A stretch of DNA of 64,000 nt from Pecten maximus (taxonomy: Eukaryota), in assembly GCF_902652985.1 (NCBI RefSeq), contig NC_047018.1, positions 12,214,001 through 12,278,000 of the forward strand, in the 5' to 3' direction. A program made the position numbers. Below, in pieces: positions 55,201 through 58,200 of this stretch (the first letter of the stretch is position 1; each line of letters begins with the position of its first letter).

Positions 55201-58200
55201 AATGTGCCCTGTAGTCCATCCACACCTAAAGAAAGAGCAAACAGCGACATCATCAGAAAATATATAGACCTAAACAATTCCAGTTTCACTTCTACTATTG
55301 AAATCAAAAAGAAGAACAAAACCAAGACAGCCGATGTGGGAATAATGAAATCCATTTCTCTCCACAAATAGTTTTCCGCCATTAAACTTGACCCCACACC
55401 TAGCCAGAACAACCCAAATATAATGGCGTTGCCTGCATTGTGAGGATCAGACTGTCTAAGTGACGCAATACCGATGACGATTTGGAAAATACCGGAAGTC
55501 AGCAACCATGGAAAGGAAAAGCGTGTGTCAGAAATGATATTGATAACATAACTAGCAAAAGTTGTAAAACAAACAGCATTAAGAGCATACATCATAATTA
55601 GATGATGCTTAAACAATGATTTATGTGACGTTTTCACATTAGTTTCCAAATTGCCCGGGCCAATAGAATTGAAGTGTTTATAATAAGCGGCTACATTTGA
55701 AAGAGAAAAATAAAGAAAAAACAAAGACAGTAGAATCTGAAGAACTGCGGTTCCTTGTAAACTAACAAACATATTAATGATTTCGAACGTTACCAGAACC
55801 ACAGAGATTACTGAGACAACACTACATGACCGGAAGTCCCTGTTAGTTAGTGAAGTGCCCAGGAAAACGAGAAATACCAGCAGTAAGCCGCCATAACCAG
55901 TAAACAAGGCTTCGTGAGGAGATATGTAGTTCTCAGACGATACATTCTGGGAGTAATTGACCTCTGTCCATATGTGATTGACCCCAACGCTTGACCAGAG
56001 CACTGCCAGACAAAGGACGACTGACTGAAGCAACTGTCTGTGATGGGAGGGTGACGTCACACCTGTAACACCCAGTAAGTAAAGTGAAGAGCATAAATAT
56101 ATTTTAGTACGTTGGTGATAATGTAATACTTATCGAACAGATAGTTACGTTATATACAAAGTTTACCGAAGAGAATTGAATACCGTTATATACAAAGTTT
56201 ACCGAAGAGAATTGAATACTTCTCGAGCAGGTAATATGCGATGAATGTAATAATTGATATATCACAAGTGAAAGTGATTTATCTTAATAAACAGGATACA
56301 TACGTACATTGTTTTGTATACGAAGAAAATCATAACGAAGACAAAATAATTTTGATTTTATTTGACATCGAATAAACACTACAGTTTGTTTGCTGCTTAA
56401 GTAAGAAGCGAATAGATAAATGCCACAGTTTGCTGGCTGATCAAGTAAAAAAAAATTAAACGCCACAGTTTCCTGGCTGATCAAGTAAAATAATTTTTTA
56501 AAAAGCGCCAGTTTTCTGGATGATCAAGTAAAATAAATTAACGCAACAGTTTTCTGGCTAATCAAGTAAAAATATAAATAAATAAATAAATAAATAAACT
56601 CCGCAGATAGTTCGAATATCAAAATGAATAACAACAGCGAACCACTTGTCGCAATAAATTCAACGAAAATAGTGCAAAAATAGCATTGAATGAAATTATT
56701 TATTTATTTATCACATTATGTACAGTAATACAAACTTACCAGTAAGTAGGAATGTCAGGGAGAGGACTACCAGTGAGGCACCGTACGGTATATTGTCTAT
56801 TACTGCCACAGATCGAGATGTCGTAATAGAATTGACAGTGGTGAGAGCTGAGAGAATGCTGGCCACCAAGAACCCAGCCGCCGCGGTCGAGTCCGCGTTG
56901 ATGCCGCTCATTTTCTTAGGCTTTTGGTTGAAAGTTTAGTGTTGATGATACCCTTCACTTTGTGTACCACTTATATATCAAACAGTGTAGAGTACAGGTT
57001 CAGGTAATACCTAGTCAGCCACTATTACTGTGTGTATTTGTTAGAAGACATGTGGTATCGAAAAACAAACTACTGACGATTTTTTTTCTTCTTCCTGGTT
57101 TGCGAAAGTCGGCCTATGATTGGACTTAAAGTCGCTGTCATAAAAGTACACACACATATATAAACATATGTATTAAGATTAGGGTGGAGTATGTCAGGTA
57201 CATTTAGGTATATTTATTTATCACCGATTTCCTGGTATATACCTCGTGGTGGCGAGACACCCAGGGGGCGGTACAGCTGTAGGTCGTAGTTGGCAACAGG
57301 GAACGCCCCCTTCAGGTCATCAATATTCATTGATAGAATGGTAGATATAACAAACAGTGATGAAAGCAAATCCGTGTAATGTGGGGTATATAAACGGGAA
57401 ACAGATATCAGGCTACTTATATTGACCATTTCTATCCTGAAAAGAATCACTTTTGTGTGTAAAGATGGAGGAGTCTCGAACGAGCGGTCGCGGGCTTCCC
57501 TTCGCGTCCCTACTCTACAGTGAGCCCGGGGCCCTGGGACTCATGGCCAACATCATGTCCGCTCTGATTGTAGCCATCAGTAACATGGTGATAGGAGACG
57601 AAACAAAACTCACTCTCGTTATAGCAGGTAAGTGTGAGAACTGTTCTAAATGCGATGTAGAGTATGAATGGTAGTCGATAACAAAAATACTTTGATATAT
57701 ATCATGAAACTGAGTGTAAAAACAAGACATAGTAATGAATGGTTAGTTATCACAAATAATGTCTATTTTCCTTCTTACGAAGATATACATGATAAAAATG
57801 CATACATTGATGAAAAGCTTGATTTAATTTGTACTTTCTTTTCATTTCTATTTATTTTTCGCGCTACCGGTGTACATAATATTGTAAAGTCGAGAATATA
57901 CATGCGGTAGATATACTGTCTTTGTGTAAAACTGTATGTTATGCATTTATGATTCTGGTTGCTGGGAGGGCGAGGGAACTATGACTCTACCTTCGAGATA
58001 ATGAACTTTCATATTGTCCTGCAACCAGGGCAATAATGTATTCATTTTACCAAAAAATAGTATTATTTGATGATATCAAAAACCAGAGTCAAGATGATAT
58101 ATAGATATTATTGTATTACAAACTCCTGAGATCTAAGTCGCCAGGTTTTATTTCACGCACCAGATTACTAAGAAACTCTCGGAAACAATTGTCTGGTACA

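Follow-up and report, generated by a model that had tools for sequence, protein, structure and literature searches.

Among the closest described systems to the gene pair reported here are the bacterial SatP (YaaH) and fungal Ato1/Ady2 proteins of the AceTr family, members of which carry succinate (PMC9409672). SatP of bacteria and Ato of fungi are both regarded as homo-oligomers, and the signature of the family is NPAPLGL(M/S) (PMC8379382). An animal relative, also termed 'Ato', has recently been described by Ghasemi et al. (bioRxiv 2025/iScience 2026; PMC13316224): proteins of about 900 amino acids (aa) in which three Gpr1/Fun34/YaaH domains are followed by a C-terminal Sua5/YciO/YrdC domain, and which form a family with two clades that is absent from mammals. 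It was proposed there that two protomers assemble into a six-domain ring like the SatP hexamer, and that the YrdC domain performs a carbamoyl-AMP-like reaction or couples import to metabolism. We analysed a stretch of 64,000 nucleotides of the scallop Pecten maximus (contig NC_047018.1, positions 12,214,001 to 12,278,000, forward strand), hereafter the window, which contains not a single N. In this window, two divergent, anciently duplicated genes, LOC117325260 (type A, minus strand) and LOC117325261 (type B, plus strand), share their 5' end, and both lie beside an orthologue of the cis-aconitate decarboxylase gene IRG1/ACOD1.

Both genes encode an 18-helix membrane part consisting of three AceTr/SatP units, followed by a Sua5/YciO/YrdC domain. 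The gene models were searched exon by exon, and the whole-protein analyses were made on the NCBI predicted proteins LOC117325260 and LOC117325261, which are collinear over their full length at 26% identity. The C-terminal domain was clearly recognised by PF01300 (Sua5/YciO/YrdC), with 113.8 bits in type B and 108.3 bits in type A for a cut-off of 25.1. In the membrane part, PF01184 (Gpr1_Fun34_YaaH) scored 33.3 bits in type B, over the cut-off of 25, and 18.5 bits in type A, below it (20.1 bits with exon 2 alone). Residues 221-400 of type B, that is its second unit, matched SatP (5zug, residues 5-187 of 190) over the full length with an E-value of 1.8e-5, and a motif of the 'GR..LP.G.P' type stands at the unit ends as it does in SatP/Ato1. 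In profile-profile comparisons against a profile of single-unit proteins, units 1 to 3 of type B reached 99.2, 97.9 and 98.4%, and units 2 and 3 of type A 97.2 and 99.3%. Unit 1 of type A reached 1.2% and is recognisable solely through unit 1 of type B (90.5%, E 1.4e-6). The best matches between the two proteins run unit for unit, A1 with B1, A2 with B2 (97.3%) and A3 with B3 (99.3%), so the triplication preceded the gene duplication. A HMMER search of 1.84 billion representatives with exon 2 of LOC117325260 returned 63 proteins, and among the tail matches of about 190-210 aa, nine of the ten scanned carry PF01184 above the cut-off.

The AlphaFold models agree with this organisation. Three times six helices plus an alpha/beta domain were predicted for type B (predicted local distance difference test, pLDDT, 81.2; predicted template modelling score, pTM, 0.74) and for type A (pLDDT 76.1, pTM 0.69). 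Foldseek aligned both with SatP (5zug_A) at template modelling (TM) scores of 0.80 for type B and 0.77 for type A, and also matched both to Sua5/TsaC/YciO. As modelled, each protein thus contains the six-helix, SatP-fold unit of about 190 aa, a likeness that extends to the bacterial structures 5zug and 5ys3 and to fungal Ato1/Ady2 (TM 0.77-0.80). Since the number of helices is even, the YrdC domain is predicted to lie on the side of the N-terminus, and should be of the cytoplasmic type. In chain organisation, the scallop proteins differ from SatP/Ato1: whereas the ring of the latter is built from six separate chains, the scallop proteins hold three units per chain, and they carry an enzyme domain fused at the C-terminus. 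The partner gene had been suspected in the first-pass annotation, which saw its first exon only, to encode three repeats as well; LOC117325261 does have three SatP-like units, and the plus-strand exon thus belongs to a SatP-related protein and not to an unrelated one. The YrdC domain of both proteins and the IRG1 neighbourhood had gone unrecognised at that stage. With three units, a C-terminal YrdC domain and lengths of 862 aa (type B) and 898 aa (type A), the two proteins have the architecture of the animal 'Ato' family of two ancient clades, and the scallop genes are further, mollusc members of this recently described family.

The layout of the pair could be read directly from the window sequence. 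The minus-strand ATG is at 56911 and the plus-strand ATG at 57465; the ATGs, as noted at first pass, are 553 bp apart, a geometry which, with opposite strands and starts closer than 1 kb, is that of a bidirectional gene pair. The spacer (56912..57464, 553 bp, 38.5% G+C, 13 CpG) is a candidate shared promoter region. No inverted duplication is left in these 553 bp, where the internal repeats amount to a single inverted pair of 12 nt and two direct pairs, both short. Coding exon 1 of type A (56740..56911, minus strand) has 172 nt, that is 57 codons plus 1 nt, with its donor GT at 56739/56738; of the degenerate first AceTr unit, it covers helix 1 (6-33 in the model) and the larger part of helix 2 (40-60). 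Coding exon 1 of type B (57465..57627, plus strand) has 163 nt, that is 54 codons plus 1 nt, with the donor GTAAGT starting at 57628; of unit 1, it encodes helix 1, the beginning of helix 2 and the signature EPGALGLMAN. One leftover base per exon makes both first introns phase 1, and the exon lengths and phases given by the first-pass annotation are therefore right. Translated exon 1 of type A is identical to aa 1-58 of LOC117325260 (100%, the NCBI predicted protein of the same genome), and that of type B to the N-terminus of LOC117325261 (100%, E 7.6e-26). Searched singly, neither first exon has a Pfam match. In other scallops, the orthologues are continuous across the exon 1/exon 2 junctions of both genes, which supports the splicing independently of the Pecten annotation.

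Two arguments that had been drawn from this layout were rejected. The outward TATA boxes exist as motifs, one TATATAA on the minus strand (56971..56977, 66 nt 5' of the minus-strand ATG) and one on the plus strand (57387..57393, 78 nt 5' of the plus-strand ATG). As promoter evidence they fail: TATAWAW occurs five times in the spacer and at a mean of 5.1 per kb over the window, so the heptamers are at chance level, and TATAWAWR occurs 216 times across the whole window. Similarly, the equal size and phase of the first exons had been taken as a sign of duplication. The introns are at non-corresponding positions, as the type B intron (after residue 54) aligns with type A residue 43 and the type A intron (after residue 57) with type B residue 69, in all three MAFFT alignments and with hhalign. 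The similar first-exon sizes and phases of A and B are not homologous features. The idea of an ancient inverted duplication itself was borne out by other means: at 26% identity and with a long, fully supported branch between them, A and B are divergent true paralogues.

The age of this duplication can be approached from the distribution of the two types. A search with type B gave 50 proteins, 48 of which carry PF01300; 25 entries are from molluscs (23 named species of bivalves, gastropods and cephalopods), 18 from chordates (amphioxus, lamprey, fishes and amphibians) and 7 have no taxon. With type A, nine proteins were found, six from named mollusc species (776-902 aa) and three without taxon. 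In a maximum-likelihood tree of 36 rows, obtained by a quick search and midpoint-rooted for drawing only, an A side of 12 rows is separated from a B side of 24 rows by a branch of length 1.31 (Shimodaira-Hasegawa-like approximate likelihood ratio test, SH-aLRT, 100). The B-side molluscs form a single clade (100), which is subdivided into bivalves, cephalopods and gastropods. Because of this mollusc clade with its class-level groups, vertical descent fits the protostome sequences better than horizontal transfer; by contrast, the family is treated as a vertebrate one in PMC13316224, with the few protostome sequences as possible horizontal transfers, whereas half of the type B proteins found here (25 of 50) are from molluscs. 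Four A-side representatives (P0029, P0032, P0033 and P0071) fall outside the molluscs. If they are chordate, the A/B duplication is older than the mollusc-chordate split, and A and B would correspond to the published 'two vertebrate clades'. In some other molluscs the two types are also neighbours, as read from LOC numbering per contig, a reading of adjacency and not of orientation: Mizuhopecten (110456033/34) and the gastropod Babylonia (143280361/62) each have them under consecutive numbers on a single contig. Judging from the tree and the alignments, it seems that both types already existed when bivalves and gastropods separated, and probably earlier, and that they have persisted ever since. 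A separate event is seen in the fish Melanotaenia boesemani, where two nearly identical B-type genes (LOC121643093/92; P0117/P0118), numbered consecutively on the same contig, group as sisters in the tree, a recent B-type tandem duplication distinct from the old A/B split.

A and B have not diverged evenly. The family signature is incomplete in type B, where unit 1 reads EPGALGLM (5 of 8 positions) and unit 2 EPMGLGYT, and it is lost in unit 3 of type B and in every unit of type A. The first-pass annotation had given the plus gene the better signature, YSEPGALGLM, and this segment (aa 18-27) is indeed in register with NPAPLGL(M/S). Its counterpart in unit 1 of type A is the degenerate STAAAGFLVA. 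Of the unit-1 signature residues, E20, P21, G25 and N29 each occur in 33-34 of the 35 B-side rows, and Q66 occurs in all 35; on the A side, all five are degenerate. The pore itself differs from that of SatP/Ato1: the equivalent of Phe17 is Asn in all three units of type B (N29/N235/N444), the equivalent of Y72 is F88/Y289/L496 and that of L131 varies with the alignment, so that the hydrophobic F17-Y72-L131 constriction is not found in type B.

The same asymmetry is found in the YrdC domain. A KxR/SxN tetrad is essential in TsaC/Sua5 (PMC6004061; PMC2685093), K50 and R52 in particular (PMC2685093). Type B has the tetrad intact (KGR, SAN) and also retains the Arg that binds bicarbonate in Pa-Sua5, whereas in type A it is altered (KKL, AAN). 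Over a 43-row alignment of 35 B-side and 8 A-side rows, K-x-R-P is present in 35/35 B-side rows, and the KxR Arg is missing from 8/8 A-side rows. Type A is in this respect like YciO, which has neither K50 nor R52. The A side has a motif of its own, AEDRPMS in seven of the eight rows and AQERPMS in P0033, one of the four sequences from outside the molluscs. Type B, in short, has a pore signature that is conserved though non-canonical (E-P-x-x-L-G ... N for N-P-A-P-L-G ... F17) and keeps the full tetrad, and type A has lost both the unit-1 signature and the KxR Arg.

These losses might be read as the decay of a functionless duplicate, and the degenerate unit 1, the sub-threshold PF01184 score, the missing Arg and the branches of type A, which are longer than those of type B in the tree, would be expected of one. 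We regard this explanation as very improbable, given six exons with canonical GT-AG borders and an intact frame of 898 codons, orthologues of 776-902 aa in six named mollusc species, a motif as constant as AEDRPMS and a confident structural model. On the sequence evidence, type A looks like a conserved, folded, non-catalytic relative and not a pseudogene. It should not be filed as a threonylcarbamoyl-AMP (TC-AMP) synthase, as the KxR Arg is gone from every A-side row. The UniRef names of the family suggest another role, that of membrane-anchored TC-AMP synthases making the tRNA modification N6-threonylcarbamoyladenosine (t6A), in which the 18-helix part would act as an anchor or as a feeder of bicarbonate/CO2. 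Type B indeed has the full tetrad together with the bicarbonate-binding Arg, and bicarbonate, a small carboxylate-like anion, could cross an AceTr-type pore. Yet t6A is universal and the fusion is confined to molluscs, amphioxus and non-mammalian vertebrates, the essential Arg is missing in type A, and the fish genes behave as infection-induced ones. We therefore think a t6A role quite unlikely. The scallop domain shares its fold and Pfam family with TsaC/Sua5 and YciO, but it is joined to a channel-like part of 18 helices, and the SUA5 C-terminal domain is missing.

In the genomic context of the pair, an IRG1/ACOD1 orthologue is carried by two exon-bearing open reading frames (ORFs) at 13893..15607 on the plus strand (MmgE_PrpD_N 4.9e-29, MmgE_PrpD_C 1.4e-35), which match the human and mouse ACOD1 structures (6r6u/6r6t) with an E-value of 3.4e-90. 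Some 35 kb separate this gene from the 3' end of LOC117325260, with which it is convergent. Upstream, at 5465..5833 (plus strand), an exon-like ORF encodes the C-terminal part of a PhyH protein, a 2-oxoglutarate-Fe(II) oxygenase (PF05721, 23.5 bits for a cut-off of 22, with weak matches in the PDB). A study of IRG1 synteny (bioRxiv 10.1101/2022.06.17.496652) reports metazoan IRG1 from molluscs, amphioxus, lamprey and jawed vertebrates only, a loss of IRG1L in therian mammals, and synteny of 'VOC, YrdC, 2Fe(II) oxy, GAT' genes with paleo-IRG1/IRG1L. The scallop window is alike in combining the IRG1 orthologue with a PhyH-like oxygenase exon and a pair of 'YrdC' genes. The difference is that the neighbours were labelled there by YrdC only, whereas the scallop 'YrdC' neighbours are triple AceTr channel-type proteins. 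In the accessible text of that preprint, the terms SatP, Gpr1, transporter, channel and export do not occur; its supplement might show the neighbourhood. No obvious VOC or GAT gene is present among ORFs of at least 75 aa between 6.9 and 50.7 kb, a search which genes with small exons could escape. The phyletic range of the fusion family as retrieved here (molluscs, amphioxus, lamprey and non-mammalian vertebrates) matches that of paleo-IRG1/IRG1L.

Expression in fish is consistent with this link. The fish orthologues of type B are named si:ch211-153b23.3 at NCBI. In zebrafish, a PHYHD1-like gene is induced together with irg1l and si:ch211-153b23.3/.4/.5. The shared clone-based names presumably mark genes on one bacterial artificial chromosome clone. 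Furthermore, irg1l, si:ch211-153b23.3 and.5 are hubs of a single co-expression module (PMC11140123), and over 18 exposure conditions (PMC8877790) the correlations are r = 0.88 for irg1l/.3, r = 0.90 for irg1l/.4 and r = 0.79 for.3/.4. We found no paper linking itaconate with Gpr1_Fun34_YaaH, SatP, AceTr or YrdC, nor one naming the six LOC identifiers of the A and B genes.

Altogether, the best overall explanation, which we favour by a modest measure, is that A and B are divergent ancient paralogues encoding half-ring channel proteins linked to IRG1. Each protein would be half of a SatP-like ring, and on balance it is probable that two protomers would close a six-pore ring. The general form of this two-protomer idea is already published (PMC13316224), and the dimer-to-six-unit-ring hypothesis made there would apply to the scallop pair. 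A 3+3 ring of six units from A and B is geometrically conceivable. The pair would be transcribed from the common 553-bp spacer and its products would act together. Based on the gene neighbourhood, the matching phyletic range and the co-expression in fish, we tentatively suggest, at rather less than even confidence, that the channel may serve the IRG1 pathway and carry itaconate or a related small carboxylate. In such a channel, the YrdC-like domain of type B may adenylate or bind a carboxylate or carbamate ligand at the channel mouth.

How the two products would combine is a more delicate matter. We lean towards a heteromer of B and A with A as a non-catalytic partner, a proposal that is still doubtful overall; homodimers of B and of A are the main alternative to it. 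More generally, A and B may be independent, forming homodimers or three-pore monomers, each with its own substrate or membrane. Their layout would then be no more than a trace left by an inverted tandem duplication, although induction might be shared. The homo-oligomeric nature attributed to SatP and Ato is in keeping with independence, and so are the published ring hypothesis, which needs no two different protomers (PMC13316224), the separate contigs of the two types in Saccostrea echinata and the B-only tandem copies of Melanotaenia. This explanation is possible, yet we hold it to be doubtful as well. Indeed, both types were apparently kept over a very long time and are adjacent in scallops and in Babylonia, and a protein that has lost the catalytic Arg and the unit-1 signature yet keeps an intact, well-folding 18-helix part is typical of a non-catalytic partner subunit. 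A complex prediction with residues 18-600 of type B and 4-400 of type A gave a score of 0.00 (mark 0.34); made without alignments or controls, it speaks neither for nor against binding. A stronger version of the half-ring proposal, in which a catalytically competent B and a degenerate, non-catalytic A would be obligate partners in a 3+3 pseudo-hexameric carboxylate channel providing transport for an itaconate gene cluster of ancient bilaterian origin, is unlikely in our estimation. This cluster would comprise paleo-IRG1, the PhyH-like oxygenase and the channel pair, which would move itaconate or an adenylated derivative across a membrane, and therian mammals would have lost the entire module along with IRG1L.

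Several points weigh against the half-ring, IRG1-linked explanation that we favour. The authors of the IRG1 synteny study saw 'no obvious functionally related gene clustering' (bioRxiv 10.1101/2022.06.17.496652), and in the zebrafish table, which consists of pre-selected differentially expressed genes, unrelated genes correlate equally well with irg1l (sult5a1, r = 0.91; PMC8877790). Linkage of A and B is not universal, since the A-type and B-type genes of S. echinata are on different contigs (19.7 Mb and 6.4 Mb). The six-unit ring, like any oligomer, is putative and depends on whether the three modelled units form a half-ring arc or a closed trimer. As the pore residues are unlike those of SatP (F17 replaced by Asn), acetate- or succinate-like conduction is not assured. 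For the A-side representatives from outside the molluscs, the nearest large Atlas clusters (at least 50 members) are chordate, which is a lead only. Lastly, the TATA heptamers and the equal intron phases, once counted in favour of shared regulation and shared origin, have dropped out of the argument.

The remaining features of the two genes are as follows. The six coding exons of LOC117325260 all lie within the window and total 2697 nt, that is 898 codons plus the stop, with GT-AG borders throughout. After exon 1 come, all on the minus strand, exon 2 (54353..56062, 1710 nt), which encodes the remainder of unit 1 and units 2 and 3 (aa 58-627), exon 3 (54119..54207, with AG acceptor and GT donor), where the YrdC domain starts, exon 4 (52292..52451) with the altered KxR site in IKKLAEDRP, exon 5 (51301..51506), in which AAN replaces the SxN motif, and exon 6 (50751..51110), with the stop TGA at 50753..50751. 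Intron 1 of this gene contains tandem repeats at 56148-56219 and 56417-56598, namely a 36-bp unit in two 100% identical copies, a 40-bp unit in 3.9 copies and (ATAA)6. As for LOC117325261, only its first 54 residues are in the window, as anticipated at first pass; beyond exon 1 there is no high-identity tblastn match in the window, the others (22-48%) falling on the exons of its paralogue. Its intron 1, at 57628..64000 on the plus strand, holds no further exon of the gene and must extend beyond 64000, the rest of the protein not being mapped in the window. This intron contains satellite-like arrays (58525-59251 and 59665-59865), in which a 23/46-bp unit is repeated about 14-16 times and one of 59 bp 3.7 times. 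It also contains, in antisense (60292-63774, minus strand), an apparently intact retrotransposon of the long interspersed nuclear element type, the ORF of which runs uninterrupted for 1160 aa with endonuclease/exonuclease/phosphatase and reverse-transcriptase domains.

In the interval from IRG1 to the 3' end of LOC117325260, only remains of mobile elements were found among ORFs of at least 75 aa, two of which were scanned against Pfam. ORFs at 24398-26042 (plus strand) carry QRICH1 and DUF3504 as well as part of a tyrosine recombinase of the phage-integrase/DUF3435 type, and resemble a Crypton-type or domesticated recombinase element. On the other side of IRG1, an ORF at 1475-1834 (plus strand), upstream of the PhyH-like ORF and perhaps belonging with it, has no Pfam match. 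From about 2293 to 4647 (minus strand), matches of TATAAATA are spaced at multiples of 46 bp, which indicates a long 46-bp tandem array. At 6064-6970 (plus strand), three overlapping long ORFs encode a repeated Cys/Ile/Ser-rich peptide, which is better seen as a translated tandem DNA repeat than as an obvious gene.

As for what is new here, the main text of PMC13316224, in its accessible portions, mentions no heterodimer, synteny, neighbouring gene, bidirectional or head-to-head layout, itaconate or IRG1/ACOD1, and its figures S5-S7 may show mollusc members. The head-to-head layout, the A/B asymmetry and the IRG1/PhyH context with co-induction in fish were not found in print. The exit of itaconate from the compartment of IRG1 is an active question of immunometabolism. 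According to this window, the enigmatic triple-AceTr-YrdC family and the unexplained 'YrdC' genes near paleo-IRG1/IRG1L are the same genes; the scallop has two of them, unequal paralogues arranged head to head at some 35 kb from IRG1. This arrangement deserves further study, as do the asymmetry between A and B and their link to the IRG1 neighbourhood. The mollusc data also argue against the published horizontal-transfer origin of the protostome members. We propose the pair as a testable candidate for a carboxylate channel dedicated to the itaconate pathway in its ancestral form, in which an active half-ring may be joined to a degenerate one as a heteromer.

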